A stretch of 64,000 nt of DNA from a virus. Under the pieces are notes generated by a model. That model saw only the letters and a program-made list of their open reading frames with translations. It was not told where the DNA came from and did not search any database. The stretch covers positions 3,493-67,492 of IMG/VR virus record IMGVR_UViG_3300045257_000190, one strand, 5' to 3'. The translations under genes and the position numbers were made by a program. Positions within the stretch are counted from its first letter, which is position 1; each line of letters opens with the position of its first letter. Of the stretch, positions 1 to 63,988 are shown in pieces.

Positions 1-173
1 CTGTCCGCCACCGATAACCGCCAGAAGCCGGTGGCTGGCGTGGGCGGCGGGGGTAGTTCGCCGGACGAGCGTGATGACGACTACCCCCGCCTGCGCTCAC
101 CCACGAGGGTTCTTGCGCGTGCACACACAGCCTAGCAATGTGAGCGTAGCATTTCACTCCGGGAGTAAGCCAG

Positions 174-2105
174 ATGATTATCACGGGTGACTGGGAAACT
201 TATTACGATAACGATTATTCCCTGTCCCGTATGAGCGAAACCGACTACATACTTTCCCCGTTGTTCCAGCCCCACATGCTCGCCCTGAAGCTGGGCGACG
301 GTCCGGTGATCACCTATGTGGGCGACGAAGCGATACGCGCGGCGGTTACCGCGATCGACTGGTCGCAGGTGGCGTTTCTCTCGCACAACGCACGCTTCGA
401 CGGGAGCATCCTGGCGTGGCGCTACGGGTGCTACCCCAAGTTATACCTGGATACCTTCTCGATGGCCCGCGCGCTCACCCATGCACAGATGGGCTCGTCC
501 TCGCTGAAGGCGGTGGCGAACTACTTCGGCATGGCGCCCAAGGGCGACTACGTGGTGAACGCCAAGGGTAAGCGCATCGAGCATTTCCTGGAGGGCGACC
601 CCGCCGAGCTGGCGCTTTACGTGTCCTACTGCGAGCACGATACCCAGTTGTGCTATGATATCTTCAACCAGTTCCGCCTCGCCGGGTTCCCCAACTCGGA
701 ATTGCAGGTGATCGACATCATGCTGCGCATGTTCATCCAGCCGCAGGCCAAACTCAACCCGTTCGCCCTGGCTGAGCACCTGCACATGGTCCAGCAGGAG
801 AAGCAGCGACTGCTCGCGAACGTCGAGGCAATGGCGCACGGCAAGCAGCTATCCTCCAATCCACAGTTCGCCCAGCTGCTCGAGGGGTTGGGCGTGGACG
901 TGCCACGCAAGATCTCCCCCACCACCGGCAAGGAGACCTGGGCGCTGGCGAAGAACGACCGGGGGTTCCGGGAACTGCTCAACGACCCGGACCAGCCCAG
1001 CACCGTTCAGGCGCTGCTGGCGGCCCGGGTGGGGGTGAAGTCCACCATCGAGGAGACGCGCGCGCTCACCCTGCTCAACCTCTCCCGGCAGGACTGGAGC
1101 GTCGTGGGGATACCCCCCGACCCGTGGATGCCGGTGCCCTACCGGTACTACGGCGCGCACACCGGCCGGCCCTCCGGTGATGGAGGTTACAACTTCACCA
1201 ACCTCAAGCGGGGCAGCCCGCTGCGGGGTGCCATCACGGCACCCGAGGGGTGTCGCGTGGTACACCGGGACAGCTCACAGATCGAGGCGCGTCTGGTGGC
1301 GTGGCTGGCCGGGTGCAGCTCGCTGGTGCACGCGTTCGCCGAGGGGCGGGACGTGTACTCCGAATTCGCCACGAGGTTCTACGGGGTCCCCGTCACCAAG
1401 GCGGACGTGCCGCGCCGGTTCGCGGGAAAGACCGCGATACTCTCATTGGGGTACGGCTGCGGTGCGCCCAAGTTCCGCAACGCGCTGTATATCGGTGCAG
1501 GTGGTGTGAGTTTGGATCTTAGGCCCGAGATCGCCGAAGAATTGGTGGGATTTTACCGAAGTTCCTATCCCGAGATCCCCCTGCTCTGGCGTCGGGGCGA
1601 GGGGGCGCTTCACCGAATGATCCGGCGGTTGGGCGGTACGGTATCCATGCATGTATCGCAGATTTCTAATCTGCCTGCCCTCCCTGTTGTGGTGGAAGGC
1701 GACGGGTTTTTCACGCTGCCCAACGGGTTGTATATACAATACCCCAAGCTGCGCCGGGAGTATGACCCGACCACGGGCAGCGACCAGACGGTCTACACAT
1801 CCGCCAAGGGTGGCGACATAAAGATCTATGGCGCCAAGGTCATCGAGAACGTCACCCAGGGACTGGCGCGCATCGTGATCACGGATATTATGGTTCGGGT
1901 ATTTAATCAAACTGGTTATCATCCTGCGTTGACAACATATGACAGCCTGGATTACGTGGTCCCCGAAACCGACGTAGATGCGTTCAATACAATCCTCGAG
2001 ACCGAGTTCGCGTTATGCCCCGAGTGGGCACCCGGCCTGCCGCTGGCGTCCGAAGGCGGGTATGGAAAGTCACTGCTGGACGCCGAGAAAGCGCTGAACA
2101 CCTAA
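174..2105 (+). CDS. Family A DNA polymerase with 3'-5' exonuclease
   Basis: Exo motifs DWET, HNARFD, YCEHD; YYGAHTGRPSG; motif A DSSQIEAR; motif B RFAGKTAILSLGYG; ENVTQG; motif C TYDS. Confidence 0.93.
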   Translation: MIITGDWETYYDNDYSLSRMSETDYILSPLFQPHMLALKLGDGPVITYVGDEAIRAAVTAIDWSQVAFLSHNARFDGSILAWRYGCYPKLYLDTFSMARALTHAQMGSSSLKAVANYFGMAPKGDYVVNAKGKRIEHFLEGDPAELALYVSYCEHDTQLCYDIFNQFRLAGFPNSELQVIDIMLRMFIQPQAKLNPFALAEHLHMVQQEKQRLLANVEAMAHGKQLSSNPQFAQLLEGLGVDVPRKISPTTGKETWALAKNDRGFRELLNDPDQPSTVQALLAARVGVKSTIEETRALTLLNLSRQDWSVVGIPPDPWMPVPYRYYGAHTGRPSGDGGYNFTNLKRGSPLRGAITAPEGCRVVHRDSSQIEARLVAWLAGCSSLVHAFAEGRDVYSEFATRFYGVPVTKADVPRRFAGKTAILSLGYGCGAPKFRNALYIGAGGVSLDLRPEIAEELVGFYRSSYPEIPLLWRRGEGALHRMIRRLGGTVSMHVSQISNLPALPVVVEGDGFFTLPNGLYIQYPKLRREYDPTTGSDQTVYTSAKGGDIKIYGAKVIENVTQGLARIVITDIMVRVFNQTGYHPALTTYDSLDYVVPETDVDAFNTILETEFALCPEWAPGLPLASEGGYGKSLLDAEKALNT

Positions 2106-2126
2106 ATCACTCCAGGAGTAACCCCT

Positions 2127-3089
2127 ATGCCTTCATCCAATGTCACCTCGAAGCTCGTCACCGTCACCCCGAAGATGGCCCAGGAGTGGCTCGACACCGA
2201 CCCGGAGGGTTCGGCCGACCGGATCAACCGCAAGTACCGTCCCGGCTGGTCGCGCTACCTCACCGAGCAGATGGACCAGGGTCGTTGGGAGGTGATCTCC
2301 GATGCGATCGGGTTCCGCGCCGACGGCACGCTGATCAACGGCCAGCACCGGTTGCGCGCGGTAATCATGCACGGCAAGCCCGTGCCGTTCCTCGTGGTGT
2401 ACGGCCTCACCGATGCTGCGTTCGCACTGACTGACCGTGGCGCGATGCGCAGTCTGCATGATGTGCTTCATATCCCGTCGACGCTGGCGTCCGATGCCAC
2501 GCTGGCGTTCTCGATCAGGACCAGCCTGACCGGTGGCCGGGTTGCCGAGATCGACGTGGCCGACACCGTGGCATGGTGGTCACCGGCGTACGACCGTCTG
2601 ATGGCGGGCGTGCAGCTGACCAGGGGGTTGTCGGCGGCGTTCGTGCGCATTGGCTTTGGTGCCCGCTGGGCTATCCAGATCACGGACATGCATCGGAACT
2701 ATGTGATGGGGCAGTACAAGGCGCTGCTGGCCAGCGACACCCAGGTGATGACCAAGGCGACCGCCATGCTGTGGAAGAAGCTCATCGAGCGGGGCGAGGT
2801 AGGGTCCCGGCTCGACCGTTCGCAGATGGCGGCGACATGCTTTTACTTCGCCAACCCGCAGCGTGCCGAGATCAAACCCCTTATCAAAGACCTGACGCTG
2901 CCCGCCGAGGAGCTGAAGCGCGTGCTGGAGAACATGGAGGCGGCCTTCATGGCAGCCCCCAAGGGTGCCGCACACCCTTATCAGTTCACCAGGGACGTGC
3001 TGCAGCGGAAGGTGGCACTGTATAAGTCGCGACCTACATCGACCCGGTCGAAGGTGAATACGAGCAACGGGGTGGAGCTGCAGGCGTGA
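2127..3089 (+). CDS. ParB/Srx (DGQHR-like) N-terminal domain protein
   Basis: VTPKMAQEWL...NR...GRW...IGF..DGTLINGQHRLRA pattern typical of phage ParB-like proteins; SD upstream. Confidence 0.7.
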   Translation: MPSSNVTSKLVTVTPKMAQEWLDTDPEGSADRINRKYRPGWSRYLTEQMDQGRWEVISDAIGFRADGTLINGQHRLRAVIMHGKPVPFLVVYGLTDAAFALTDRGAMRSLHDVLHIPSTLASDATLAFSIRTSLTGGRVAEIDVADTVAWWSPAYDRLMAGVQLTRGLSAAFVRIGFGARWAIQITDMHRNYVMGQYKALLASDTQVMTKATAMLWKKLIERGEVGSRLDRSQMAATCFYFANPQRAEIKPLIKDLTLPAEELKRVLENMEAAFMAAPKGAAHPYQFTRDVLQRKVALYKSRPTSTRSKVNTSNGVELQA

Positions 3090-3751
3090 CACCTAAGCCC
3101 TTCACCTGGAGCTACTCGGCGCTAAAAAATTACACCACCTGCCCGCGCCGGTACTACGAATACGACATCGCCAAGAGCATCACCGAGCCCGAGAGCGTGC
3201 ACCTGCGCGAGGGCCATCGGGTGCACGAGGCGTTCGCCGCGCGCATCCGGGACGGCACGCCCCTGCCTTTGGGCATGGGCATGCACGAGGGGATGCTCGC
3301 GCGCTTGGTCGAGGCACCGGGGGAGATCCACGTTGAACAACGCCTGGGGCTGACCAGTACGTTCCAGCCGGCCGAGTTCTTCGGCAAGAGCGTGTGGTTC
3401 CGCACCGTGCTTGACGTGGTCAAGCTACAGCCCAACGGCAAGGCGCTTATTATAGACTGGAAAACCGGCAAGGTTGCCGACGACATGACCCAGTTGGCGC
3501 TGTGCGCGGTCACGCTCATGGCGCACGACACGCGGGTGACCGACGTGAAGGCGGCGCTGATCTTCACAGCTTACGGTGAACATATAGAGGAAAGTTACTC
3601 CCGGAGTGACATCACCCTGATCTGGTCGCGCATGCTCCCTCGGGTGAACCAGCTGCTCGATGCGCATCAGACCCAGCACTACCCACCCAACCCGGGTGGC
3701 TTGTGCCGGCGGTGGTGTGCGGTAACGTCCTGTCCCTTCAACGGAAGGTAG
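3086..3751 (+). CDS. PD-(D/E)xK (Cas4/RecB-like) exonuclease
   Basis: WSYSALKNYTTCPRRY, G.RVH, LD...IIDWKTGK, QL, C-terminal CRRWC...CPF; GTG start overlapping upstream stop. Confidence 0.85.
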   Translation: MTPKPFTWSYSALKNYTTCPRRYYEYDIAKSITEPESVHLREGHRVHEAFAARIRDGTPLPLGMGMHEGMLARLVEAPGEIHVEQRLGLTSTFQPAEFFGKSVWFRTVLDVVKLQPNGKALIIDWKTGKVADDMTQLALCAVTLMAHDTRVTDVKAALIFTAYGEHIEESYSRSDITLIWSRMLPRVNQLLDAHQTQHYPPNPGGLCRRWCAVTSCPFNGR

Positions 3752-4730: not shown

Positions 4731-6307
4731 ACGCCAACACCCCGGCAACCCAGACCTTCGTCGTCAACGGCGGGCAGTACGTGGCGGTAGCACACTCGCC
4801 GGCGCTCGCGGCGATCGTGCCCCACGCCAAGATCTTCGAGTGGCGGGGCATGAAGATGCTCTTGTTACCCAACATGCCCGAGGAGGCGCGCGTCGCGCGC
4901 AACCTGGGGGTGATGGTGCCGAGCCCGATCCTCACGCGCTATGATTGGAGGGGCACCAAGCCCTGGGATATCCAGCGCACCACCGCCGCGCTCTTGGCTG
5001 AGAGCGCGCGCTGCTATGTGCTATCTTCTATGGGCACAGGGAAAACCCGGGCGGTGATATACGCCGCCGACTACCTGATACGCATGGGGTTCGCCCATCG
5101 TATCCTGGTGGTCGCACCATTATCCACACTCACACCAGTATGGGAGAAGGAGTTCTTCGATCTCGGGCTATCCTCCGAGGTGCGTATTCTGTACGGGAAC
5201 AAGGACAAGCGCCTCAAGGTGCTGCGCGAACAGAAGCGCATATGCGTCATCAACCATCACGGGCTGCGGGTGATGGGCGATGACATACTACGCGGCGGGT
5301 TTGATATCGTGGTGTTCGATGAGCTGGCGATCTACCGCAACCGTACCACGCAGCTCTGGAAGTTCGCCGCCCAGCTGGTGAACAGCACCACCACGAAGTT
5401 CGCCTGGGGGCTGACAGGATCACCCACCCCCAACGCACCCACCGATGCCTGGGCGCAGATGAGATTGCTCACGCCGGCGAACACCACGCGGTCGTTCGTC
5501 GCGTTCCGTGATCAAACCATGCGCCGCATCACCAGCTTCAAGTGGGTGCCCCGGCCCGAGGCCAATGAGATCGTGCACACGGGCATGAACCCCAGCGTGC
5601 GCTACACCCGCGAGGACGTCATGGAGCTGCCCGAGTGCAGCTACGTGGATCGTCACGTGCAGCTCGAGGCGGACGCCGCGAAAGCCTATCGCTTAATGTA
5701 CGATCGCTCGCGCATGATCACGCACACGGGCAAAGAGATCACCGCCGTCAACGAAGGGGTGCTGCAGAACAAACTGCTTCAGGTATCCTGCGGATACCTC
5801 TACGCCAACGACAAGACGGTGTACGCGCTACCCTCGGGCGGCAGGTTATCCGCGTTGGAGGAAGTGCTCGACGAGACCGATCACAAGTCCATCGTGATGG
5901 TGCCCTACCTGCACGCGCTCGATGGCGTCGCGGCGCATCTCACCAAGCGTGGCTATGATATCGCCGTCGTGCACGGTGGGGTAGGACGTTCCGCACGTGA
6001 TACAATCTTTAATGATTTTCAGGCTGGACCTTCGCCGCATATTCTGGTAGCACACCCGCAATGTCTGGCACACGGGCTGACGCTCACACAGGCCGACACC
6101 ATCGTCTGGTATTCGCCCACGCAATCCCTCGAGATCTACGAACAGGCCAACGCACGCATCAACCGACCGGGACAAAAGAACGTCACGTACATCGTGCACA
6201 TGATAGGCACTCACGTCGAACGCGCCACCTATGCAAGGCTCAAGAATAAGCAAACCATGCAATCTTGTTTGTTGCAGCTTTTCAAGGAACAACCACTCGC
6301 CTTCTAA
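4727..6307 (+). CDS. SNF2-family SF2 helicase
   Basis: MGTGKT, VVFDE, LTGSP, HGLTLT, QANARINRPGQ. Confidence 0.9.
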   Translation: MNANTPATQTFVVNGGQYVAVAHSPALAAIVPHAKIFEWRGMKMLLLPNMPEEARVARNLGVMVPSPILTRYDWRGTKPWDIQRTTAALLAESARCYVLSSMGTGKTRAVIYAADYLIRMGFAHRILVVAPLSTLTPVWEKEFFDLGLSSEVRILYGNKDKRLKVLREQKRICVINHHGLRVMGDDILRGGFDIVVFDELAIYRNRTTQLWKFAAQLVNSTTTKFAWGLTGSPTPNAPTDAWAQMRLLTPANTTRSFVAFRDQTMRRITSFKWVPRPEANEIVHTGMNPSVRYTREDVMELPECSYVDRHVQLEADAAKAYRLMYDRSRMITHTGKEITAVNEGVLQNKLLQVSCGYLYANDKTVYALPSGGRLSALEEVLDETDHKSIVMVPYLHALDGVAAHLTKRGYDIAVVHGGVGRSARDTIFNDFQAGPSPHILVAHPQCLAHGLTLTQADTIVWYSPTQSLEIYEQANARINRPGQKNVTYIVHMIGTHVERATYARLKNKQTMQSCLLQLFKEQPLAF

Positions 6308-6326
6308 CTCCAGGAGTATCAACCCC

Positions 6327-8046: not shown

Positions 8047-11004
8047 ATGGATCTGCCGACCACGCTCGCCCGTATCGTCCCCACCACCCCTGGCACGTAT
8101 CTTATCGTCGTCTATAAAACACCCAGAGGTATCACTTACCGATCCTTCCCGGCCGACACCGGCCACCTGAGTGCCGCTGCGCTGATGGAGCGCATGTCCG
8201 CCCAGGGGTTTGATACGTATTTCGCCATCAGCGGGTTCACCGCGCCCCGCCGTCTGCGCACCAACGTCGCGGGCAGTCGCGCGCTCTACATCGACGCCGA
8301 CGTGGCACGCCCTGGCGACGGCAAGGATCCCGCCAAGGTATTCCCGGACCGCAAGGCGGCCTGGACGTGGCTGACGCGGTTCACCAAGGGCACGGGATTG
8401 CCCTTGCCGAACGTCACCATCGACTCGGGCTACGGGTATCACTGGTACTGGGTGCTGGACGAGGTGCTCGACCTGGACCGGTGGCAGGCGCTGGCCGACG
8501 CGTTTTTGGCGGCCATGATCGCGCATGGCTGGACCGGAGACACCGCGCCGACGATCGATGGCGCAAGAATATTACGCCCGCCGGGTCTGCTGAACCACAA
8601 GGAGCCAAGCACCCCCGCGCCGACCAGCGTGTTCACCCACGTACTTTTCCCGTCAGACGATCATCCCCTTAAACTTATAGAAAATAGTCTACAGGCCTAC
8701 CGGAATTCCACTCCGACTCGGCCGGGAAGCCTGTCAAGCGGGAAAACGAGCGCCCATCGAAGTGTCGCCAGTTCGTTGGGCACTCCGCCGGCGCACGTTA
8801 CTCCGGGAGTAAACCAGGGTCTGAACGCTGCCGCCCATGCCAACATGGGCAACCTGCACGAGCCTCACTGGTTCGAACACATCGCCACCCGCTGCCTGCA
8901 AGCCAAGCAATCCCTGGACACCAACGGCGCGGGTGATTCCTACCAGCTCTGGTACCTGGGCTGGATCACCCTGCTGGCCTTCTGCGAGGACGGGGACGAC
9001 TTCATCCACCTCGTGTCCAGCGCGCACCCGAAATACGCCCAGGCCAACGTCGACGCGCATTTCACCCAGGCCCAGCACGAGATCGCCACCAAGGGCCTCG
9101 GCCCGCCCACCTGTGCGGCCCTGGATCTGGCCAACCCCGGCGTGTGCGCCGGCTGTCCCTTCCGGGTCAAGGTCAAATCCCCCATCGCCCTCGGCTATCC
9201 TGCCGATCCGCTGGGGGATCTCCCGCAAAACTACCGGCGCACCGGCACCCACATCGAGGGGCTGGTCGGTCAGGGGAAAACGCAGCGCTGGGCGAAGCTG
9301 ATGCCCGGCGACGTAACCAACCCCTGGCTCGAGCAGGTAACCATCGGCGGCCAGCGGTTGCACTTCGAGTATCTGTTCGGTGGCGAGGTCATACCGATCA
9401 ACGCGCTGGCTGAAGCAGTCAGCATGGGTGGCGTTGCCATCGTGCAGCATCTGACGCGCCTGGGTATCACCGCGACCAAGCTCGAGTTCGAACGCATAGG
9501 GGACTTCCTCGTGGCCTGGATCAAGCAGCTCCGCGACCGGCGTGTGATCAACCGCGACGGGCTGCGGCCCTTTGGTTGGACCCATGACGAACAGGGCAGG
9601 CACCTGGGCTTCGCGGTCGCCGGCACGCACTACCTTGCCGACGGCAGCGAGCAGATGATCGCCGCCGGCGATGCGACGATTGCTTCGTACTATCGACCGG
9701 CGGGGGATTATAGCGAGTGGCTCAAACCGGGCGCGCTATTCCAGAACAGCGAGCCGGCGGCGCAGCTGATCATCGCCACGGCGTTCGCGGCACCCCTGAT
9801 ATCGCTGGCCAGCATGGTCAAAGGGGTGAGCTGGAACTTCTGGTCGAGCAACTCGGGCGTGCAAAAAACCGCCGCGATGGATTACGCCCAGTCGGTGTGG
9901 GGCGATCCGGTGCAGAAGTCCTCGCAGTCGGATACCTACAACGCCGTGGTGAACCTGCTGGGCACCACGCGCGTGCTGCCACGGTACTGGGACGACATGC
10001 TCTGTGACGACAAGGAGTCACAGGAAACCTTTAACGCATTGGTGCGCAGCATCACCCAGGGCGCCGAGAAGAACCGCCTGAGCGCATCCGCGCAGCTGCA
10101 GCGACGGCACGAGTGGGAGACCATGCTGGTAATCTCATCCAACCGGTCCCTGAGTGACCTACTGGCGGCCAACGACACGACCGATAGCGGATACCAGCGC
10201 CTGATCCAAGTGAAGTTTGAGCGACAGGCCACGCCGCATAATGCGCAGGTGGGTCTCACGCTGAACCTGATCAAGAACAACTACGGCCACGCGGGGCGCA
10301 TCTACGCCAAGCACATCGCCATGCATCACGATCCTATCCAGCAGGAGATCGTCGAGTCGATGGACGTGCTGGGTCAGAAGTTCAGCGTCCAGCAGGCCGA
10401 GCGTCACTTCGTCACCGCGATGGCGTGCATCCTTGTGGGCGCACGCCATGCCGAGAAACTCGGGCTGTTCACCTTCGACCATCGCGGCATGCTGAACTGC
10501 ATGCGGTTGTCACTAGGGGATCTGCGCAGCGCCACCGGTGCGCAGGTGCTGGTGGGCAACACCGGCGTGTTCGACCATGTGGAAGTGCTGGCACGCTACG
10601 CACACTACGAAGCAGCGCGTCGGGTACGCACGGATATTCTTGGCACGCCGGGTAGCATGAAGCCGAACATCCTCGGGTCGCCTACCGCCAACAACATCAA
10701 CGTGCAGATCGCCCAGCGGGCAGCTATCCTGCGCATCAACCGGTCGGATTTCCGCAAGTGGATGACGGCCAACAACATCCCCGCCAATGACCTGATCAAG
10801 CAGATCAGCCAGCTACCCAACGTACGCCAGACCCGCGAACATATCGGCGGGGGAACGCCATGGGCTACCGTGAAGCTGTGGGTGCTGGACATACCCCTGG
10901 TAGGACCATTGGCGAGCTTCCTCGATTCGATCGACCAGCAGCCCATCCATGGGCTGACCCACCTGCAGAACCTGCGGCAGGATGCGCCCACGTCCACGCC
11001 ATAG
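8047..11004 (+). CDS. AEP (RepB-like) primase fused to DUF927/helicase-like domain
   Basis: YIDAD, SGYGYHWYW, DGARILRPPG; Cys cluster C...CAGCPF; FGW; FAAPL; degenerate P-loop SNSGVQKT; NNYGHAG. Confidence 0.82.
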   Translation: MDLPTTLARIVPTTPGTYLIVVYKTPRGITYRSFPADTGHLSAAALMERMSAQGFDTYFAISGFTAPRRLRTNVAGSRALYIDADVARPGDGKDPAKVFPDRKAAWTWLTRFTKGTGLPLPNVTIDSGYGYHWYWVLDEVLDLDRWQALADAFLAAMIAHGWTGDTAPTIDGARILRPPGLLNHKEPSTPAPTSVFTHVLFPSDDHPLKLIENSLQAYRNSTPTRPGSLSSGKTSAHRSVASSLGTPPAHVTPGVNQGLNAAAHANMGNLHEPHWFEHIATRCLQAKQSLDTNGAGDSYQLWYLGWITLLAFCEDGDDFIHLVSSAHPKYAQANVDAHFTQAQHEIATKGLGPPTCAALDLANPGVCAGCPFRVKVKSPIALGYPADPLGDLPQNYRRTGTHIEGLVGQGKTQRWAKLMPGDVTNPWLEQVTIGGQRLHFEYLFGGEVIPINALAEAVSMGGVAIVQHLTRLGITATKLEFERIGDFLVAWIKQLRDRRVINRDGLRPFGWTHDEQGRHLGFAVAGTHYLADGSEQMIAAGDATIASYYRPAGDYSEWLKPGALFQNSEPAAQLIIATAFAAPLISLASMVKGVSWNFWSSNSGVQKTAAMDYAQSVWGDPVQKSSQSDTYNAVVNLLGTTRVLPRYWDDMLCDDKESQETFNALVRSITQGAEKNRLSASAQLQRRHEWETMLVISSNRSLSDLLAANDTTDSGYQRLIQVKFERQATPHNAQVGLTLNLIKNNYGHAGRIYAKHIAMHHDPIQQEIVESMDVLGQKFSVQQAERHFVTAMACILVGARHAEKLGLFTFDHRGMLNCMRLSLGDLRSATGAQVLVGNTGVFDHVEVLARYAHYEAARRVRTDILGTPGSMKPNILGSPTANNINVQIAQRAAILRINRSDFRKWMTANNIPANDLIKQISQLPNVRQTREHIGGGTPWATVKLWVLDIPLVGPLASFLDSIDQQPIHGLTHLQNLRQDAPTSTP

Positions 11005-28190: not shown

Positions 28191-28670
28191 TTACGTGTCC
28201 TCCGAGATACAACGAACGTCCGGCTCCGTGTTACTCCGGTAGTGACGCGGCGTGATCCTGAGCCACTTACAGTCAGCTTTCTTGAGCGTGAGGATCATGA
28301 TGTCGCCGCCATCGGCGAGCATGTCGGTGAGCTTGGCTTCGATGCGAAACCCCATGCGCAGATCGATCGACAGCGCACGCGAATTACTCGACGCAACCAA
28401 CCCCACGCATTTGCGCACGCCGAGCTGGTTGAATGCATAGTCGTAAACCATCCACAGGAAGTCCCGCGACGCCCAGTGGGTTTCGTTGCCTGCCATGTGC
28501 AGGATGATCGAGCCGTGCAGGAATCCGGTGAATACCACGCCACCCAGTACGGCGTTATCATCACCGTGACAGCTGACGCAGTGGTCAGTTTTATCATTGA
28601 ACACCCCACCCACGCGGGCCATCACCCAGTCGCCGGCGCCCGGCCAGTTGACCCGTATGCTGCGCGCCAT
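28191..28670 (-). CDS. GNAT (RimJ/RimL-like) acetyltransferase
   Basis: YAFNQLGV, V..SNSRAL....RMGF..E. Confidence 0.78.
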   Translation of the reverse strand: MARSIRVNWPGAGDWVMARVGGVFNDKTDHCVSCHGDDNAVLGGVVFTGFLHGSIILHMAGNETHWASRDFLWMVYDYAFNQLGVRKCVGLVASSNSRALSIDLRMGFRIEAKLTDMLADGGDIMILTLKKADCKWLRITPRHYRSNTEPDVRCISEDT

Positions 28671-47242: not shown

Positions 47243-47271
47243 CCCGGTTACTCCCGGAGTAAGGGTGAGAG

Positions 47272-52349: not shown

Positions 52350-52952
52350 ATGGACGACGAGATCATCGACGAGTTGCTGGACGGGATCACCGTGGTCGGC
52401 GCCGAGCCCGACATGGACAAAGCCACGCTATATGCGTTCTGCATCGACACCGCCCAGCGGATCCATGATTACGACGTGATCGCCCGGCGGTATGGGTTCG
52501 GCGATGAGGCGGGGATGGTGGAGTTCCTGCGCACCCACCCGCCGGTGGTGAAGCGGGTGAAGGAATTGCGGGCGGTCTGGGAGAGCGACGAGAGCGTCGA
52601 GCTTCGGTTGAGGAAGCTGGCGGGGCATAGCCTGCTGGAGGCGCTCCCCGATACTGCTTCCATCATGTTCGACAAGCAGGTTACTCCCGGAGTGAGGCTC
52701 GAGGCGCTCAGGGCGCATGCCAGGATAGCGGGTGTAGATACACCCCCACACGTGCCGGCCGGCGGTGCGGGGGGTATCGGCGGGGGTAGTGGTGGCGGAC
52801 GGTTCTCAGTGCAGATTGTGTTTAACAATTCCGGGCGGGTGGAGACGATCACCGCGTCGGAGCGGCATTTGAAGGAGATCGAGAGCGAGACGGAGATGAC
52901 CCGCGAGATGGACACGGAGGAAAGCTTTGATACGATTACGGGTGATACATAA
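52350..52952 (+). CDS. Terminase small subunit (putative)
   Basis: Directly upstream of and coupled to terL; helical, ends GG.FSVQI. Confidence 0.6.
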   Translation: MDDEIIDELLDGITVVGAEPDMDKATLYAFCIDTAQRIHDYDVIARRYGFGDEAGMVEFLRTHPPVVKRVKELRAVWESDESVELRLRKLAGHSLLEALPDTASIMFDKQVTPGVRLEALRAHARIAGVDTPPHVPAGGAGGIGGGSGGGRFSVQIVFNNSGRVETITASERHLKEIESETEMTREMDTEESFDTITGDT

Positions 52953-56241: not shown

Positions 56242-56730
56242 GATGACCTCCCATGGTTAAAAGGGGGCAGGCCCACTGACGACCTGCCCCGAGTTCGGAG
56301 ATTACTCGCGTGTCTCGACGGGATCGTAGGGCCTGCCCCCTGCCGGGGCAAGACTGTTCTACACACGTGTAGATGAATTACGATATCGAAACGAATAATC
56401 CCTGGGGAGGGAAAATTTTTCAAAACTGCTAGTGCTATGGATTTTAATACAAAATTAACTAAGACCGTTTGAGGTGTGGACGTGGCGATGGCTTACCTAA
56501 AGCGGCCGGCCCGGCACCACCCCCTTGGACAGCTCCCCCTCCCCCCGGGGGTGGGGATGGTTACTCCCGTAGTAAAATCCGTTCTGGCCCATATGAGAGA
56601 ACCGGAAAGCCGCTCCCGCTGGGGAGCATGTCGCTACCGGGGGACACATGGGCAAGAGCCAAATCCCCATGACGGTTTGATACGAGACCGGGAGTAGCGC
56701 GTCAGCCAAAGGCGCAAGCGTATAAATATC

Positions 56731-57081: not shown

Positions 57082-57181
57082 CGCGGTGTTCACACATCGC
57101 GCGGGGCTTGCGTTGTTCCGGCAAGCGCCGCGATGCCGCGACGCTTTCCAGGGCAACCCCTAACACTCCCGGAGTAAACCA

Positions 57182-57570: not shown

Positions 57571-57593
57571 CCCTTACTGCGGAGTAAACCCCA

Positions 57594-57858: not shown

Positions 57859-58776
57859 ATGGCTAAGATTTCTGTCACCCTAACCGACGATCAGATGAAC
57901 CTCGCGTCGCGCATCCACGCCCTGGTATCGGGCGCGCTCTCGCAGTCCATCCGCGAGATGGCCGACGCATCGGACGCGCTACAAAGCGCAGCTGAAATCA
58001 CCAAAAATTCCGGCCGCTTGGCGCTCGCACGCCAGATCGCCGAACTCTCGGCTGCCGAGGATTGGAAGGGCAACGATATCGCCGCCGCATGCGAGCACGC
58101 CCGCAAGATCGGCAATGGCGATGACAAGACGGCCAAGACGCTGAACACCGCGATCAGCGAAATGCGCTTGTTCGCCAACCCGAACGTGCGCGCGGATGTC
58201 GGCCGCCTCGCGGACGCCTGCCAGCAGGCATGGGATAACGAAACGCTTGACGTGATGTGCGCGGACCCCGAAGACAAGTCCAGCGTGCCCACGCCCATCC
58301 GCAACTATGCGCCGCGCGTGTATCACCTGCTCACGTACGTCACGCGCGCCGTGAAGGATGGCAAGCTGGAAGTCTACAACGCCGACGATATCGTCTGGTG
58401 GGCAAAGGTCAACGATCCCGCGTTCAACCCCGCGAACACCGCCAAGAAAGTCAAGCAGATCATCAAGCAGCTGGATACTATCCGCGCCATCTACAAGCTG
58501 GCGGATCTGGACAGCGCATCGGATGTGCTGCGCGACGTGGACGAGAAGATGCTCGAAGCCGGGCTTACCCGCCCGGTCCATGTCAAGCCGGGGCACGCTG
58601 CCCCGGCGCTGCCGCCCAAGCCGGATTACATTGTCACTCCGGAAGTAAATCACCCGGTGATCCTGCCCGTCGAGGCGAGCACGCCCACGCCCGCGAGCGC
58701 GGGCGGCCCGGCCGATGGCGCCTACGATTACACCGACGGCAGCGAGGATGAGTTCAACCAGCTGCTCGCCGCCTGA
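57859..58776 (+). CDS. Early hypothetical protein
   Basis: AAGGAG SD; ends QLLAA. Confidence 0.75.
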   Translation: MAKISVTLTDDQMNLASRIHALVSGALSQSIREMADASDALQSAAEITKNSGRLALARQIAELSAAEDWKGNDIAAACEHARKIGNGDDKTAKTLNTAISEMRLFANPNVRADVGRLADACQQAWDNETLDVMCADPEDKSSVPTPIRNYAPRVYHLLTYVTRAVKDGKLEVYNADDIVWWAKVNDPAFNPANTAKKVKQIIKQLDTIRAIYKLADLDSASDVLRDVDEKMLEAGLTRPVHVKPGHAAPALPPKPDYIVTPEVNHPVILPVEASTPTPASAGGPADGAYDYTDGSEDEFNQLLAA

Positions 58777-59268: not shown

Positions 59269-59448
59269 ATGCCCGTCATCAGGGTCTCGATCCCCGATCC
59301 TTCTCTCCGGCTCGCGCAACAGACGGCACAGATGATAGGGGTCTCATTGTCGGAGTACGTCCGTATGCTCGTGATCCGCGACGTCCGCGACAACCCACCC
59401 GAGGCTCAACCTATTACTACGGGAGTGACAATAGAAAATGACCGCTAA
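59269..59448 (+). CDS. Ribbon-helix-helix DNA-binding protein
   Basis: VIRVSIP...A...GVSLSEYVRMLV. Confidence 0.65.
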   Translation: MPVIRVSIPDPSLRLAQQTAQMIGVSLSEYVRMLVIRDVRDNPPEAQPITTGVTIENDR

Positions 59449-59911
59449 TCGCATAGCGAGGCAACGCACTCGGATGGATCTCACCTTTAATGATGTGAAT
59501 TACAAGCGATGCATCGGGTGCAAGCTGCTCCGCCCCATCTCCGAGTATGCCACCAAACGTGTAAAAGTCTGCTTCAAGTGTCGCGGACTCGAGCGCAAGC
59601 CTGACGGCCGGATCATCGAGTTGGCCCCGTACAAGCCACAGCCCAAGCCGCGCGCAAACGCGGCGCCCTATCCGCTGGATAATTACCCGGCCTATCTCCG
59701 CTACATGCGCGAGCGTGCCCGCACGCGCTATGCCGCGAAGCGTGAGGAAGCGGGCAAGCCACCACCCAAGCCGCGCTTTCCGTCCCCGTTCCGCAAGTGC
59801 CGCCATTGCAAACAGACCATGCCCCGCCGGCACTTCCCTGAGAACAGCCGCATCTGCAAGCCCTGCCTCGATCGCGAACTCGAGCAGATCAACGCATATA
59901 CTCCGGAGTGA
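59438..59911 (+). CDS. Basic Zn-finger protein
   Basis: Four CxxC motifs. Confidence 0.65.
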   Translation: MTANRIARQRTRMDLTFNDVNYKRCIGCKLLRPISEYATKRVKVCFKCRGLERKPDGRIIELAPYKPQPKPRANAAPYPLDNYPAYLRYMRERARTRYAAKREEAGKPPPKPRFPSPFRKCRHCKQTMPRRHFPENSRICKPCLDRELEQINAYTPE

Positions 59912-59916
59912 TCGGC

Positions 59917-60708: not shown

Positions 60709-60734
60709 CCAATTCACTCCGGAGTAACAATCCA

Positions 60735-61034: not shown

Positions 61035-61219
61035 CCGCCGCCAAGCTGATCGAGTTGCTGGCCACACACATCATACACCTTGGCCATGACGTCGAGGTAC
61101 ACCTGTGGCGCCCGCGTGATAGCAAGCCAGTCACCCATTGTTGGGTCGACGACGAGAACAACGTGATCAACCTTTACTCCGGAGTAACATCACATGAACC
61201 ACGATCAGGATCTGCGTGA
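61031..61219 (+). CDS. Hypothetical protein
   Basis: ATGA coupling. Confidence 0.5.
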   Translation: MTAAKLIELLATHIIHLGHDVEVHLWRPRDSKPVTHCWVDDENNVINLYSGVTSHEPRSGSA

Positions 61220-61450: not shown

Positions 61451-62626
61451 ATGAATTTGAATCAGGCGCTGGACGTGCTCATCCGCACCCATCTCATCGC
61501 CATCGAGCGCAACGAACGCCCGATATCCGCCGAGCTGCGCTCGGGCCCGGGCCTGGGCAAGTCATCCACCATCTTCGATTCCTGCTCGCACCTCGCGCGC
61601 GCCACCGACCAGCCCGTCGGGCTGGTCACCGAGATGCTCGCGACGTGGTTGTCCGTCGACGTACGCGGGTTCATGATCCCGCAGAAGGCCACCGACGGCA
61701 CGATACGCCCGGTCACCGTGTTCACCATCCCACCGTGGTATCCGGTGCGTCACAATACCACGGTGTTCTATCCCGATGGCACCTACGCCACACCCACCAC
61801 CTGGGATCATCCTGTCCCCACCATCGGCATCGTGTTCCTCGACGAATTCGGCCAAGGGGAAGACGACGTGAAGAAGGCCAGCGCTGAACTTCTCCTCAAC
61901 GGCCGCGTCGGCAACGACCAGCTGCCCGTGGGGTGGCGCGTGATCGCCGCCAGTAACCGCCTGAGCGATCGCTCGGGGGTGCTGCGCTCGCTGCCCTTCA
62001 TCACCAACCGGCGCATGGAGATAAATGTGTCTCCCGACCTGGACACCTGGAACGACTGGGTGAACCGCCTCGAGCCCGCCAAGCGTCCGCATCACATGAC
62101 GATCAGCTTCGCCAACAAGCATCCGGATCTCGTGTTCCGCGATGAAGTCCCGCCGGGCGACGCACCCTTCTGTACCCCGCGCACGCTCATGATGATGGAC
62201 CAGTCGCTCCAGTCACTCCGGAGTAAGGAGGATGTCACCGCCGATCGCATGCCCACCGATCCGATCGCCCGCGAGGTATGCACCGGCCTCATCGGCGGAT
62301 CGGAGGCGGCGCAGTTCTTCGTGCACATCAAGTACGCCGACGAGATCCCGGATATCGCCGAGATCGAGCGTGACCCGATGCGTGCCAAGCTCAACGAACG
62401 CCGCGACGTGCAGATGGTCACAAGTTTTATGCTGGCGCACCATCTCACCGCGAAGAACGGCCTGCAGATCATGCGCTACATCAGTCGCATGAACGTCGAG
62501 ATGGCCGCACTCGCGGTGCGCACCATCAGCAACCAGCCCGATCGCGCCGCCATGATGGTGAACAACCGCGACTTCAGCCAGTGGCTGATCACCAACAAGG
62601 ATGTGCTGATCGCGTCGCACACCTAA
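61451..62626 (+). CDS. AAA+ ATPase (MoxR/dynein-related type)
   Basis: GPGLGKS, DVRG, IVFLDE, AASNR, NR, TPR. Confidence 0.85.
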   Translation: MNLNQALDVLIRTHLIAIERNERPISAELRSGPGLGKSSTIFDSCSHLARATDQPVGLVTEMLATWLSVDVRGFMIPQKATDGTIRPVTVFTIPPWYPVRHNTTVFYPDGTYATPTTWDHPVPTIGIVFLDEFGQGEDDVKKASAELLLNGRVGNDQLPVGWRVIAASNRLSDRSGVLRSLPFITNRRMEINVSPDLDTWNDWVNRLEPAKRPHHMTISFANKHPDLVFRDEVPPGDAPFCTPRTLMMMDQSLQSLRSKEDVTADRMPTDPIAREVCTGLIGGSEAAQFFVHIKYADEIPDIAEIERDPMRAKLNERRDVQMVTSFMLAHHLTAKNGLQIMRYISRMNVEMAALAVRTISNQPDRAAMMVNNRDFSQWLITNKDVLIASHT

Positions 62627-62864
62627 CACCTATCCCCGGATAGAGGGCGCCTGACACTTTCCCTATGACGGGCGCGCATAGCGACATGACCAACCTCCCT
62701 AACCGACCGTCTCCCTCGAGGGGTGTGTTCCCCGTTCATTGGACGCCGGCATGGGCAAAGACAGTCAGGCCTAAGAAGTTAAATGTCTAAGGTTGGTCGC
62801 GCCCACCCTCGCTCTCCCCTACTATCCTCACTCCCGTAGTAACAGCCAACAGGATATCCACACC

Positions 62865-63788
62865 ATGCCAGATACCAACACTACCAACACATCTACCCAG
62901 ATCTCCCAGGATCTCGCCGACGCGGTGCGTGAGACCGCGATCCTCGTGGATCTCTCGATGGGCACATGGTCGGGCGAGCGCACCGATCGCGCCATCGGCG
63001 ACAAGGTGAAGGAGGACGCCGGCGCGGTGGGTAACACCGGGCGCTACCTGAAGAACCTGCTCGCGGGATGCGACACCAAGCTCAGGGAGGTTCGCGCCGC
63101 CTACGCCGTCGCGCGCACCACCCACTACACTCTCACCCTGCCCTGGGTCTCGGACCCGGCGGCGCAGCGTGCCATCGGCCCGCGCCTGTTACCTAATGCG
63201 CTGTTCGATCGCTACATGCGGGAGATGGGGCGCCTCCAGCGCACAGCCGTCGCCGCGCGCGATGAGTTCCTCACGGTGTATCCCGCTCTCGCGCAACAGG
63301 CGCAATCCAACCTGGGCGATCTCGCCAACGCCGACGAGTACCCCACCGTCGAGGAACTCGAAGCCGCGTTCCGTCTCAGGTTCGACTTCCAGCCTATCCC
63401 CGACACCAGCGCCTTCAAGGGCCTCCCCGAGGCGATGCTGGGCAAGCTGGGCGCGGCACTCGAGCGTCGCCAGCTGGCGGCCATCCAGGGCGCCCAGAAC
63501 GCCATGTGGAGCCGGGTGCGCGAGGGCGTCGAGCACCTCGTCGACCGGCTCGCCGAGCCCGACACGCGGTTTAAGGAAACTTCGATCGAGGGCGTGCGGG
63601 AACTGATAACCCTGCTGCCGGGGTTCAACTGCGCCGATGACCCGCGTGTCACCGAGATCACCGAGGATATCCGCAACATGCTGGACGGGATAACCGCCAA
63701 GGATATCCGCCTGGATACGCGTCTGCGCGAGGACGTGGTGACCAAGGCGCGCGCGATCAACGACCGGCTGCGCTCGTGGGGGCTGTGA
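62865..63788 (+). CDS. DUF3150-like helical protein
   Basis: W.G...D....V, HY..TLPW, RLL, F...YP, YP...EL...F...F.P.P. Confidence 0.6.
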   Translation: MPDTNTTNTSTQISQDLADAVRETAILVDLSMGTWSGERTDRAIGDKVKEDAGAVGNTGRYLKNLLAGCDTKLREVRAAYAVARTTHYTLTLPWVSDPAAQRAIGPRLLPNALFDRYMREMGRLQRTAVAARDEFLTVYPALAQQAQSNLGDLANADEYPTVEELEAAFRLRFDFQPIPDTSAFKGLPEAMLGKLGAALERRQLAAIQGAQNAMWSRVREGVEHLVDRLAEPDTRFKETSIEGVRELITLLPGFNCADDPRVTEITEDIRNMLDGITAKDIRLDTRLREDVVTKARAINDRLRSWGL

Positions 63789-63790
63789 TC

Positions 63791-63988
63791 ATGCCCGGAC
63801 CCTCGCGCGTCTATCTGCGCTGCAACGGATGCAGGCGGCGCATACGCATCGACCTGATCGACGGCAAAGAGGATTTCACTACCGGCGAAGTGACGCTGCT
63901 ATGCCGTCATTGCTACGGGCAGGGCTGGTCGCCCCTGCAAGTGGAATGGCTGGCGATTAATGATCCACCGCACATACTCCAGGAGTAA
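63791..63988 (+). CDS. Small Zn-ribbon protein
   Basis: CNGC...CRHC. Confidence 0.55.
   Translation: MPGPSRVYLRCNGCRRRIRIDLIDGKEDFTTGEVTLLCRHCYGQGWSPLQVEWLAINDPPHILQE

Follow-up and report, generated by a model that had tools for sequence, protein, structure and literature searches.

The genome of the uncultivated soil phage analysed here carries along its whole length a 15-bp palindrome, TTACTCCNGGAGTAA (TTACTCC(N)GGAGTAA), and the evidence supports a selected, genome-wide element that is neither a product of chance nor solely a ribosome-binding site. Its copies are selected at the level of DNA, are old in the phage family and change together by lineage. We tentatively favor, at somewhat less than an even chance, the explanation that they are duplex-DNA recognition sites for a putative sequence-specific protein, which would act upon them as a multi-site regulator or roadblock.

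Abundance and Positional Classes

Within the window, by which we mean the entire 64,000-nt stretch under analysis, TTACTCCNGGAGTAA is matched 18 times with two or fewer mismatches, against an expectation of 0.03 (the mean of 100 dinucleotide-preserving shuffles, with a maximum of 1 and 0/100 reaching 18). Five further copies lack the centre base (57574, 59898, 60714, 61174, and 62213) and bring the window total to 23 (Table 1), while arms separated by a spacer of 2 or 3 bases yielded 0 copies. The whole 67.4-kb contig (G000) is a circular assembly whose initial 100 bases reappear 127 bases before its end, such that window site 63974 and genome site 101 are one and the same copy; it holds 27 unique copies, 20 with a one-base centre and seven without. 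Sequences flanking the copies are not conserved.

These copies fall into two classes. Fifteen of the 27 precede a start codon by 4–9 nt and share the orientation of the gene; the GGAG of these start-associated copies serves as a Shine-Dalgarno sequence, and translation alone could account for them. The remaining 12 comprise ten copies within genes and two that are intergenic. The 25.5-kb early/replication block holds 20 of the 27 copies (P 1.5e-4), a concentration attributable to the start-associated class, with non-start copies contributing 7 of their 12 (P 0.12). Non-start sites have C or G as the centre base in 77 of 80 instances, and A is found there only in start-associated copies, on the sense strand, in both G000 and its relative G001.

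Table 1. Copies of the palindrome in the 64,000-nt window, with their setting and their state in relatives.
Position	Copy	Setting	Gene (strand)	Remarks
154..168	TCACTCCGGGAGTAA	Start-associated, 5 nt before ATG	DNA polymerase, 174-2105 (+)	
2107..2121	TCACTCCAGGAGTAA	Start-associated, 5 nt before ATG	ORF 2127-3089	G000/G001 alignment break
3595..3609	TTACTCCCGGAGTGA	Within gene	Exonuclease, 3086-3751 (+)	Retained in G001; ordinary codons in G002/G003
6305..6319	TAACTCCAGGAGTAT	Start-associated, ATG 7 nt on	ORF to 6761	First TAA is the helicase stop
8798..8812	TTACTCCGGGAGTAA, perfect	Within gene	DUF927 primase/helicase, 8047-11004 (+)	Peptide V T P G V N
20464..20478	CTACTCCCGGAGTAA	Within gene	2578-aa virion protein, 14744-22480 (-)	V T P G V G; retained in G001
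26504..26518		Within gene	PAPS-reductase domain, 25871-26662 (-)	L L R E Y; retained in G003/G010, absent in G001
28231..28245	TTACTCCGGTAGTGA	Within gene	Acetyltransferase, 28191-28670 (-)	Same position in G001-G004, G010
32068..32082		Start-associated, 8 nt before ATG	ORF 31835-32059 (-)	Overlaps stop of tail-fibre gene (32080-34167)
34240..34254		Within gene	ORF 34168-34443 (-)	L L P E Y; identical in G001
47248..47262	TTACTCCCGGAGTAA, perfect	Start-associated, 5 nt before ATG	ORF 47057-47242 (-)	Just downstream of major head gene
52681..52695		Within gene	Presumed small terminase, 52317-52952 (+)	V T P G V R; TPNETR/QPAQTR with ordinary codons in G002/G003
56561..56575	TTACTCCCGTAGTAA	0.9-kb non-coding region		Region separates divergent gene blocks
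57163..57177	ACACTCCCGGAGTAA	Start-associated, 4 nt before ATG	ORF 57182-57457	
57574..57587	TTACTGCGGAGTAA, no centre base	Start-associated, ATG (57594) 6 nt on		
58634..58648	TCACTCCGGAAGTAA	Within gene	ORF 57631-58776 (+)	V T P E V N; retained in G001
59414..59428	TTACTACGGGAGTGA	Start-associated, ATG (59438) 9 nt on		
59898..59911	ATACTCCGGAGTGA, no centre base	Gene junction		Left edge of 368-nt cassette absent in soil variants X3-X5
60714..60727	TCACTCCGGAGTAA, no centre base	Start-associated (ATG 60735)		Left edge of 469-nt cassette absent in X2-X5
61174..61187	TTACTCCGGAGTAA, perfect, no centre base	Start-associated (ATG 61194)		Right edge of 469-nt cassette
62213..62226	TCACTCCGGAGTAA, no centre base	Within gene	MoxR-type AAA ATPase, 61451-62626 (+)	GCACTACGTAGTGA in G001, still a palindrome
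62828..62842	TCACTCCCGTAGTAA	22 nt before probable ATG (62865)	DUF3150-like	Retained in G001
63974..63988	ATACTCCAGGAGTAA	Start-associated, ATG (genome 122) 6 nt on		In 127-nt assembly overlap; genome site 101

Selection on Copies Within Genes

Shuffling synonymous codons within each gene of G000 (200 rounds) gave a mean of 0.385 intragenic copies and a maximum of 3, against 11 observed, and the corresponding figures for G001 were 0.39 expected and 14 observed. An excess over such a shuffle had been set beforehand as a check by an earlier note on this DNA, and much else in that description is borne out: each coordinate that it named carries the motif (our window count being 23, its own 24 at 0–3 mismatches), the nine sites given as within genes in Table 1 lie in ORFs with coding signal and family matches, and the codons GTT ACT CCG GGA GTA AAC are correct for site 8798. 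As it also claimed, the intragenic copies are read in different frames, in fact in all three, and favor codons ending in A or T, which occupy 29 of 53 third positions vs. 0.22 genome-wide. Four unrelated proteins contain the peptide VTPG/EV, in place of which relatives show other residues. Among truly intragenic asymmetric sites, a hand count gave about 8 in the sense and 6 in the antisense orientation with respect to the gene. Intragenic positions turn over rapidly among relatives and site numbers persist, a turnover more readily reconciled with a need for density than with local operators.

Relatives and Sister Lineages

The conservation that the earlier note had called for is found both near and far. 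G001 carries 25 copies, G002 14, G003 20, G004 7, and G010 10, with 0 copies for a reversed-pattern control, and identity between G000 and G001 is 86.1% over motif bases (242/281) vs. 75.2% over 20-nt flanks (602/801). Perfect palindromes also occur at one or no mismatch in more distant phages (G011, 12; G012, 8; G015, 6), whose lineages are separate from the G000 clade in helicase and polymerase trees; 18 of 20 non-start sites in these three phages, at the same threshold, are symmetric at positions 6/10. Sister lineages have related palindromes of their own, as would be expected if reader and sites change together: TTCCCTAC-NN-GTAGGGAA in G006 (28 copies) and CACTAC-(S or CG)-GTAGTG in about 22 places in G008. 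The centre of the G008 palindrome, like that of the G000 motif, differs in length by one base between copies. G005 and G007 have a related motif, ACTATAGG. The consensus of G002, G003, and G010 is truly asymmetric, with 26 of 31 non-start sites pairing A with G. Forms specific to starts are likewise seen: G002 and G003 place TTAATAC-S-GGAGTRA before ATG, and G012 has GAGAGTAAC directly 5′ of ATG in 32 copies vs. 1.4 expected.

Candidate Binding Proteins

A search of 61 ORFs against Pfam, PHROGs or both gave no above-threshold match to helix-turn-helix, ribbon-helix-helix or ParB families, and a comparison across relatives found no protein with the phyletic pattern of the motif. The best-fitting conserved candidate, a protein of 265 aa, has a confident structure model with no recognised fold. 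Two ORFs that had been proposed earlier as binders fared poorly: ORF 2127-3089 lacks a homologue in the motif-bearing G001-G003, and ORF 59263-59448 (previously given as 59269) has a sub-threshold DUF6290 match (E 0.013) and is present in G001 only. No integrase was found in the phage, and a lysogenic silencer is therefore not indicated.

Alternative Explanations

Action in RNA is an unlikely explanation. The motif would here be a translational operator or an element hiding the Shine-Dalgarno sequence, timing or coupling the translation of small early genes, either through base pairing between GGAGU and the left arm, ACUCC, or because early mRNAs are bound at the 15-mer by a phage protein, after the model of T4 RegA. 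The placement of the 15 start-associated copies, its recurrence in G002, G003, and G012, and the confinement of a centre A to the sense strand of such copies all favor it, and the “start-associated sequences” of Cluster K are a published precedent (PMC3203893). However, the 12 copies away from starts are still selected, asymmetric intragenic copies point both ways, the start-associated forms of G001, G002, and G003 are unable to pair (0 to -0.5 kcal/mol), and most of the perfect copies that G011, G012, and G015 carry are off starts (6/28 at starts, by automated classes). The earlier argument that a Shine-Dalgarno role is inadequate holds for non-start copies and understated the start-associated ones, where that role applies. 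For non-start copies, a hairpin or other mRNA-level reading fits poorly, given an RNA stability of -3.1 to 0 kcal/mol, the non-complementary A-with-G form in G002, G003, and G010, and an orientation independent of transcription; recognition in duplex DNA is consequently the best remaining reading, and to that extent the earlier interpretation is supported in part. Promoter function is highly improbable, whether as N4-like hairpin promoters for a virion-delivered RNA polymerase or as targets of a phage-specific transcription factor. N4 hairpin promoters have a 5–7 bp stem and 3-nt loop, and a perfect copy can fold to a 5–6 bp stem with a 3-nt loop; moreover, the 2578-aa virion protein is largely unassigned and kept throughout the family, and the G005/G007 motif is one that we take to resemble the core of T7-type promoters. 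Yet sequence searches against PHROGs, Pfam and PDB brought up no RNA polymerase, the sites lie 4–9 nt from start codons or deep within genes in both orientations, the flanks are not conserved, and G002 and G003 have lost the hairpin.

That a site-specific enzyme nicks (or cuts) the DNA at these copies is distinctly unlikely; the model would be phiKMV-like phages, phage tf and T5, whose DNA has localised single-strand interruptions. The nick consensus of the phiKMV group, CGACxxxxxCCTA/CTCCGG (PMC3517423, PMC3604761), has TACTCCGG in common with the G000 motif, and TACT is common to that motif and to TACT/RTGMC, the nick site of tf (PMC3517423). The four LUZ19 sites, examined directly, read CCTACTCCGG[G/C], TTACTCCGG stands on at least one strand of each copy that has a C/G centre or no centre base, and a 103-aa endonuclease-like ORF (4419-4730) is conserved in the ten relatives with contigs covering the region. 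However, the eight-base likeness is post hoc and amounts to a lead rather than a test; known nick sites are on a single strand only (PMC3517423), whereas the motif is palindromic and its centre base shows no strand bias; nicks 9 bp apart on both strands would break the genome; and the LUZ19 sites are non-palindromic and 33–58 nt upstream of genes. A binder supplied by the host, recruited or titrated by phages of one host group, is just as improbable. It would suit a helicase tree in which the exact motif occupies two separate clades, and the presence of that motif in G012, whose capsid and terminase are less identical to those of G000 than are those of motif-negative relatives, as well as a motif distribution matched by no phage gene; tail-fibre segments common to G012 and the G000 clade and absent in G005-G007 are weak evidence, because coverage is only 11–44%. 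Against it, the exact 15-mer occurs in 0/401 sampled Alphaproteobacteria genomes, the motif at one or no mismatch in 0/5 bacterial genomes with capsid relatives, and the matches listed (at least 120 genome-contig loci) are single per locus apart from those in two MAGs, one with a 12-nt tandem repeat and the other, of 23% GC, with a repeat; retention of an ancestral motif accounts for the tree equally well. Less probable again is that the junction repeat is mainly a recombination boundary for the gain, loss and swapping of small early genes, in the manner of the PeSL cassettes of T4-type phages, for which PeSL-mediated shuffling has been published (PMC2839356). Cassettes 59910-60277 and 60710-61178 are missing from soil variants X3-X5 and X2-X5, respectively, and their junctions fall within copies 59898, 60714, and 61174 or at most 5 nt away; a variant without the latter cassette carries one hybrid copy; and, of the 54 ends of blocks aligned between G000 and G001, five are no more than 12 nt from a copy vs. 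0.83 at random (P about 0.001). Nevertheless, block ends show no excess at motif starts (4/10 in the early block vs. 6/19 motif-free starts) and may reflect gene junctions as such, 15 nt is a short homology, and selected intragenic copies and perfect conservation in distant lineages are left unexplained.

A Proposed Multi-Site Regulator or Roadblock

We return to recognition of duplex DNA by a protein, where we infer the binding, the phage origin of the protein and the effect of its binding. What weighs against this explanation, besides the negative search for a binder and the turnover of intragenic positions, is that a rigid homodimer should accept neither a centre that may be 0 or 1 base long (G000, with the same one-base variation in G008) nor a preference for one A and one C half-site. 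The dimeric binder of the earlier note is accordingly doubtful, also in view of the asymmetric consensus of G002, G003, and G010, and its coating or loading along the whole genome is conjecture. “Undescribed” was too strong for the kind of element, since the literature already describes dispersed palindromes without a known function in Cluster O mycobacteriophages (PMC4351075); the G000 motif resembles these and would belong to a known, mostly unexplained kind.

In the mechanism that we propose, a sequence-specific protein, most likely phage-encoded and common to the whole family, would read the palindrome on double-stranded DNA, and the genome would maintain about 25–30 sites for it. Where genes abut, the site would be built into the junction, such that GGAG doubles as Shine-Dalgarno sequence and TAA often as stop codon; where there is no gap between genes, it would be placed in coding sequence, a placement paid for in rare codons and even altered residues. 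By analogy with stoperators, the conserved inverted repeats of phiC31 and KorB operators, the bound protein may thereby exert genome-wide control of expression, densest over the small early genes.

Genome Context and Placement of the Motif

The palindrome TTACTCC(N)GGAGTAA is a real element, under selection and old within its phage family. Its arms, TTACTCC and GGAGTAA, are about 7 bp long and enclose a centre of one base or none; centres of 2 or 3 bases do not occur in the contig. In the window, TTACTCCNGGAGTAA is present 18 times at up to two mismatches, against 0.03 on average and never more than 1 in dinucleotide-preserving shuffles, and the centre-less form accounts for seven copies in the contig, five of them within the window. 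All of the copy positions listed in an earlier note on this sequence were verified.

The contig that carries these copies measures 67,492 bases, 64 kb of them in the window, with a G+C content of 62%. Its first 100 bases are repeated 127 bases before its end, which makes it a circular assembly of 67,365 unique bases. To judge from its gene set, the virus is a podovirus-like phage. On the plus strand, genes for replication encode a DNA polymerase, an exonuclease, a 103-aa endonuclease-like protein, a helicase and a DUF927 primase/helicase. A long minus-strand block holds two large proteins (a virion protein of 2578 aa that includes LPD39 and DarB-like parts, and a protein of 1127 aa), several enzymes (a PAPS-reductase-domain protein, a class I methyltransferase and an acetyltransferase) and structural proteins (an internal virion protein, tail fibres and spikes, the major head protein and the portal). 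After this block come the terminase and then small plus-strand genes that continue across the contig junction. Searches of PHROGs, Pfam and PDB sequences found neither an RNA polymerase nor a tyrosine integrase among the genes (PF00589, 0 matches), and PDB sequence searches with the 2578-aa and 1127-aa virion proteins gave no useful match. Megablast against deposited phages returned no near relative; the closest deposited large terminase (TerL), that of Rhizobium phage RHph_TM3_14A, is 42% identical. The contig occurs in sequencing runs from metagenomes of soil and roots. No Rfam family was matched anywhere in the window, and a scan of 54300-64000 for sigma-70 promoters and terminators found no more than in shuffles. 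Features with coordinates are collected in the first table below.

Twenty-seven unique copies are present in the contig: 15 at gene starts, 10 intragenic and 2 intergenic. The 15 start-associated copies carry GGAGTAA on the coding strand, 4-9 nt upstream of the start codon and with GGAG in the Shine-Dalgarno position, and the stop codon of the preceding gene is often the motif's own TAA or a TAA that opens the left arm. Thirteen of them belong to the early/replication block, and two precede small genes that come directly after the head gene and a tail-fibre gene. In the start-associated copies the left arm is less strictly kept (TCACTCC, TAACTCC, ACACTCC) and 4 of 15 have A at the centre, while the 12 non-start copies are nearer to the perfect palindrome, with C or G in all ten that have a centre base. 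The early/replication block, at 25.5 kb, holds 20 of the 27 copies (P 1.5e-4) but only 7 of the 12 non-start copies (P 0.12), and the non-start class is therefore spread over the genome.

Features of the phage by position (G000, this phage; G001, a relative; X2-X5, soil-sample variants; L185, a locus)
Coordinates	Numbering	Feature	Observation
154	window	motif copy	lost between G000 and G001
8798	window	motif copy in the primase	read as V-T-P-G/E-V
20464	window	motif copy in the giant virion protein	read as V-T-P-G/E-V
26504	window	motif copy	lost between G000 and G001
52681	window	motif copy in the small terminase	read as V-T-P-G/E-V
58634	window	motif copy in ORF 57631-58776	read as V-T-P-G/E-V
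59898	window	motif copy	contains the left junction of cassette 59910-60277
62213	window	motif copy	symmetric double change from G000 to G001, TCACTCCGGAGTAA to GCACTACGTAGTGA
2127-3089	window	ORF	no homologue in any relative
25871-27533	window	PAPS-reductase-domain protein adjoining a class I SAM methyltransferase	lies among virion genes
54674-55399	window	ORF	C-terminal PEP-CTERM sorting motif (Pfam E 4.4e-5)
56242-57181	window	non-coding region	0.9 kb, gene-free
57031-57083	window	three direct repeats of 16-17 nt, GTGATAACGAAGCCCTTGCG, inside 56242-57181	copy number varies among soil variants (joints 57015>57077, 57051>57085); resemble iterons and may mark a replication origin
59263-59448	window	61-aa ORF	DUF6290, E 0.013; homologue in G001 only
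59910-60277	window	gene cassette	missing in 3 of 4 runs (X3-X5)
60710-61178	window	gene cassette	missing in 4 of 4 runs (X2-X5); flanked by copies 60714 and 61174
122-454	genome (L185)	pair of small genes in tandem (54 aa, 53 aa)	each ends in the motif's TAA; start contexts almost identical; probably a duplication
2650-3447	genome (L185)	265-aa protein, just outside the window	adjoins the polymerase gene; kept in most of the family

Selection Within Genes

Copies inside genes stand far above the codon-preserving expectation, in the test that the earlier note had asked for. When synonymous codons were shuffled within each gene (200 shuffles), a mean of 0.385 and a maximum of 3 intragenic copies arose, compared with 11 observed; under the same shuffle the relative G001 has 14 against 0.39. 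Within the intragenic copies, 29 of 53 third codon positions are A or T, compared with a fraction of 0.22 genome-wide, and the excess is comparable in G001 and in three more distant carriers (G011, G012 and G015). Intragenic copies occur in all three reading frames, and those in frame 0 have T for the last A, such that no in-frame stop arises. In frame 1 the motif encodes the peptide V-T-P-G/E-V (codons GTT/GTC ACT CCG/CCC GGA/GAA GTA/GTG), which is found in four unrelated proteins. At the small terminase position, the relatives G002/G003 instead read TPNETR/QPAQTR in ordinary codons, a difference indicating that the motif site has been written into the protein.

Conservation and Divergence Among Relatives

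Searches of IMG/VR with TerL yielded relatives at 51 loci, and further distant carriers were found by scanning IMG/VR for the exact pattern (second table). The motif is present in G001-G004, G010 and G011-G015, bearing out the conservation that the earlier note's proposal implied, while the reversed pattern, counted as a control in the whole records of the TerL relatives, was at 0 in every one.

Motif copies in related virus records (IMG/VR)
Record	Length	TerL identity	Copies	Mismatches allowed
G001	66.8 kb	93%	25	up to 2
G002	67.2 kb	67%	14	up to 2
G003	64.3 kb	68%	20	up to 2
G004	55 kb		7	up to 2
G010	34 kb		10	up to 2
G005-G009		58-62%	0	up to 2
G011	41 kb		12 (8 exact)	up to 1
G012	48 kb	40%	8-9 (7 exact)	up to 1
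G013			4	up to 1
G014			3	up to 1
G015			6	up to 1

The phage and G001 are 77.8% identical over 46 kb, with identity at motif bases of 86.1% and in the flanks of 75.2%, and the double change at site 62213 is the sole compensating case seen. These two genomes alone share most of the intragenic copies. The site in the acetyltransferase gene is retained in G001-G004 and G010 and that in the PAPS-reductase gene in G003 and G010, but most intragenic positions are confined to G000 and G001, and it follows that positions turn over as numbers persist.

Within this closer group the motif has also become asymmetric. In G002, G003 and G010, A at position 6 stands opposite G at position 10 in 26 of 31 non-start sites (32 of 39 when G004, a near twin of G002, is added), the remainder comprising two C/G-symmetric and three A/T-symmetric sites. 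This is far above what two independent half-sites would give, and the consensus in these three genomes is thus truly TTACTAC-S-GGAGTAA.

Farther afield, the replication genes of G011 and G015 are about 50% identical to those of this phage, and G012 is more distant still (capsid 57%). All three carry the perfect palindrome with a C/G centre, and 6 of their 28 copies are at gene starts by automated classification. In trees of helicase and polymerase, G011 and G015 cluster with G008 and G005/G007, and G000-G003 with G006 and G009, all 8 of the inner branches of the helicase tree being well supported; the exact motif accordingly occurs in two separate clades as well as in G012. Other lineages carry motifs of their own. 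G006 has 28 copies (up to four mismatches) of TTCCCTAC-NN-GTAGGGAA, a motif shared with G009 (L186-L191), which is dense in intergenic sites at contig ends and also lies within large structural genes. G008 (L181-L184) has CACTAC-S-GTAGTG and CACTAC-CG-GTAGTG in about 22 places, and hence two spacings there as well. G005 and G007 (L360-L365) carry ACTATAGG in 10 and 7 copies, against 0.7 expected. In G012 (L355-L357), GAGAGTAAC is a second, start-associated motif family, with 32 copies against 1.4 expected, mostly abutting ATG and following TTACTCT-like left arms. The core common to the arms of the lineage motifs is CTAC/GTAG or CTCC/GGAG. The simplest account of this distribution is an ancestral motif that was retained, with three later changes; transfer or a shared host factor may alternatively have produced it.

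Gene Cassettes in Soil Variants

Variant contigs from four other soil samples (X2-X5) were aligned to 54001-64000, and two cassettes present in this phage were missing from most or all of them, with junctions in or next to motif copies. Variants that lack 60710-61178 keep a single hybrid copy of the motif in its place. Between this phage and G001, 5 of 54 ends of aligned blocks lie near copies, compared with 0.83 at random; in the early block, block ends fall at 4 of 10 starts with a copy and 6 of 19 without, which is no excess. From the cassette junctions it follows that copies mark, at least in position, sites of cassette gain and loss.

Search for a Reader Protein and a Host

Across 61 ORFs run through Pfam, PHROGs or both, no DNA-binding family scored above threshold, and ParBc and repressor families had no match in the 47 ORFs run through Pfam. 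The DUF6290 match at 59263-59448 is the lone hint. Phyletic profiles found no gene with the motif's distribution, and ORF 2127-3089, which the earlier note had named for binding tests, has no homologue in any relative. Two further candidates were set aside on the same kind of evidence. The PAPS reductase and SAM methyltransferase are limited to G000-G004/G010 and are missing from the motif-bearing G011, G012 and G015. Genes for a MoxR ATPase, a DUF2201/VWA protein, a DUF3150-like protein and the 265-aa protein occur together in G000-G003, G011, G015 and G006, and partly in G012 and G009, but G008, on a contig that is 80% complete, has a palindrome without this set. For the 265-aa protein, a large protein database contains just 7 homologues. 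Its model is confident (pLDDT 86.7), and its fold has no Foldseek match at E<=0.001, the best VIA Z being 5.3, to helical bundles; Atlas gave nothing useful for it.

The host was approached through both the motif and the capsid. The exact 15-mer with a C/G centre was found in 0 of 401 sampled Alphaproteobacteria genomes and, at up to one mismatch, in 0 of the 5 bacterial genomes with capsid relatives, which come from two Bradyrhizobium isolates and from MAGs of Pseudolabrys, Acetobacteraceae and Rhodospirillales. The matches listed from genome contigs were single and scattered, apart from two repeats. Those in MAG CWP4-2.bin.134 belong to a tandem 12-nt repeat and not to the motif. Locus L297, from a Metamycoplasmataceae MAG of 23% G+C, holds six copies of TTACTCCNGGAGTAAGTGAAG.AATATTA within 8 kb, a different family that matches the same 15-mer by chance. 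The capsid relatives (loci L320, L327 and L322/L324) are 56-69% identical, and none bears the motif. In the two Bradyrhizobium isolates their contigs, at about 60 kb, are of phage size, and they occur twice in a 465-kb Pseudolabrys MAG contig, which suggests that they are resident or integrated in Hyphomicrobiales. Separately, the PEP-CTERM motif in ORF 54674-55399 is a hint that the host is Gram-negative and has an exosortase.

Comparison With Known Systems

The closest known match in kind comes from Cluster O mycobacteriophages, whose 17-bp dyad-symmetric repeat, TGTTCGGNNNCCGAACA, is present in Corndog in 34 copies between and inside genes (PMC4351075). Both systems consist of two 7-bp inverted arms around a short centre, in about 30 copies genome-wide between and within genes, without an orientation rule relative to transcription and without an assigned function (PMC4351075). 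They differ in the spacer, 3 bp in Cluster O as opposed to 0-1 bp here, and in the arms, which are invariant in Corndog (PMC4351075), whereas copies here decay into a start-associated class in which GGAG is embedded. In addition, intragenic selection was tested here by codon shuffle and lineage variants were traced. The arms, the tens of copies between and inside genes and the presence across the group are thus all found here, in a phage family and host phylum unrelated to those of Cluster O.

Stoperators are asymmetric 13-mers recognised by a monomeric immunity repressor, oriented with transcription and found in temperate phages, and the OB operators of plasmid RK2 are scattered over a replicon of about 60 kb, some far from promoters, as the sites here likewise are. 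Compared with stoperators, the present sites are near-palindromic, many lie deep in genes and they follow no orientation rule; an integrase and a repressor were not found (PF00589; 47 ORFs in Pfam). Cluster A stoperators (L5 gp71 type) do resemble them in forming tens of short sites across the genome, many in short gene-junction gaps, with a site sequence that varies among sub-lineages (PMC9283540, PMC6550527). KorB of RK2, a ParB-family CTPase whose OB operator is TTTAGCGGCTAAA, offers a working model of scattered sites that silence at a distance (PMC11790492). OB is likewise a short palindrome with a C/G centre, but the sequences are unrelated and no ParB-like protein was detected here in 47 ORFs with Pfam. 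Stoperators and KorB operators may therefore serve as working models for many-site regulation by analogy, their defining features being absent or not found in this phage.

Three other systems resemble parts of the pattern. The start-associated sequences of Cluster K, GGGATAGGAGCCC, are conserved 13-15-mers with GGAG that stand a few bases ahead of the starts of many unrelated genes, in gene orientation; they are not palindromic, and intragenic copies of them are not described (PMC3203893). Fifteen of the 27 copies here stand before starts in this way, at a spacing of 4-9 nt, and the other 12 do not. The nick consensus of phiKMV-like phages, CGACxxxxxCCTA/CTCCGG, at sites formerly annotated as phage promoters, includes the octamer TACTCCGG, in podoviruses that also have T7-like replication genes and about 62% G+C; those sites number four per genome, lie on one strand, are non-palindromic and require CGAC upstream (PMC3517423, PMC3604761). 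The octamer is common to the nick consensus, for which the LUZ19 sites were read directly from its record, and to CCTACTCCGG, but the upstream CGAC-N5 is absent here. Nick sites of the phiKMV/tf/T5 type lie on one strand, whereas the 27 sites here are palindromic, with the central G or C on either strand and no strand bias. Finally, the PeSL cassettes of T4-type phages are short regulatory repeats that border small non-essential early genes, gained and lost with junctions in the repeats; each PeSL consists of a promoter plus a terminator, spans tens of bases and does not lie inside genes (PMC2839356).

Interpretation and Implications

As an RNA hairpin, the perfect form of the motif would reach a predicted stability of -3.1 kcal/mol, the centre-less form -0.7, the intragenic form of G003 -0.9 and the start-associated forms of G001/G003 0 to -0.5 kcal/mol; a hairpin in RNA or single-stranded DNA was rejected on these low values, 0 to -3.1 kcal/mol in all, and on the A-G mispairs in 26 of 31 sites. 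The intragenic asymmetric sites in G002/G003 face both ways, about 8 sense to 6 antisense by hand count. For the non-start class, these observations speak against both a structure in RNA and a signal read in the direction of the mRNA. GGAGTAA/TTACTCC is the most over-represented heptamer (30 seen against 3.3 expected), and a Chi-like reading of it was dropped, as just 3 of the 30 GGAGTAA heptamers, on both strands of the contig, lie outside a palindromic context.

The likeliest account, which we offer tentatively and as a candidate, is that a specific protein recognises duplex DNA at many sites, with Shine-Dalgarno use of half of the copies layered on top. The earlier note had proposed that the protein be dimeric; the A/G asymmetry and the two spacings speak against a simple rigid homodimer. 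A further reading, which we regard as rather improbable, is that the family keeps a genome-wide density of one palindrome and not fixed positions, such that the motif would be a mark of "self" or a loading site for a whole-chromosome factor (a sliding clamp, a factor that shields the DNA from host nucleases, or a host protein that the phage has hijacked). It is drawn from selection that rewrites protein sequence, from fast turnover of sites at a held number, from the same 15-mer persisting through about 50% protein divergence and from sister lineages that switch to new palindromes. If true, the motif would be a counterpart in a dsDNA virus of Chi, KOPS and parS, with a reader of unknown fold.

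For annotation, the motif accounts for half of the "odd" Shine-Dalgarno contexts and for several rare-codon runs in the phage family. Dispersed palindromes have previously been noted in a few phage groups and are still unexplained. This family provides a handle on the problem: a motif with measurable intragenic selection, a natural lineage series in which it is kept, made asymmetric or replaced, and soil variants in which cassettes are gained or lost at its sites, which together make the question testable. With protein recognition of duplex DNA as the preferred account, identifying the reader protein would tell whether the motif serves silencing, protection, nicking or organisation of the phage chromosome, and might bring to light a DNA-binding fold with 14-base specificity.
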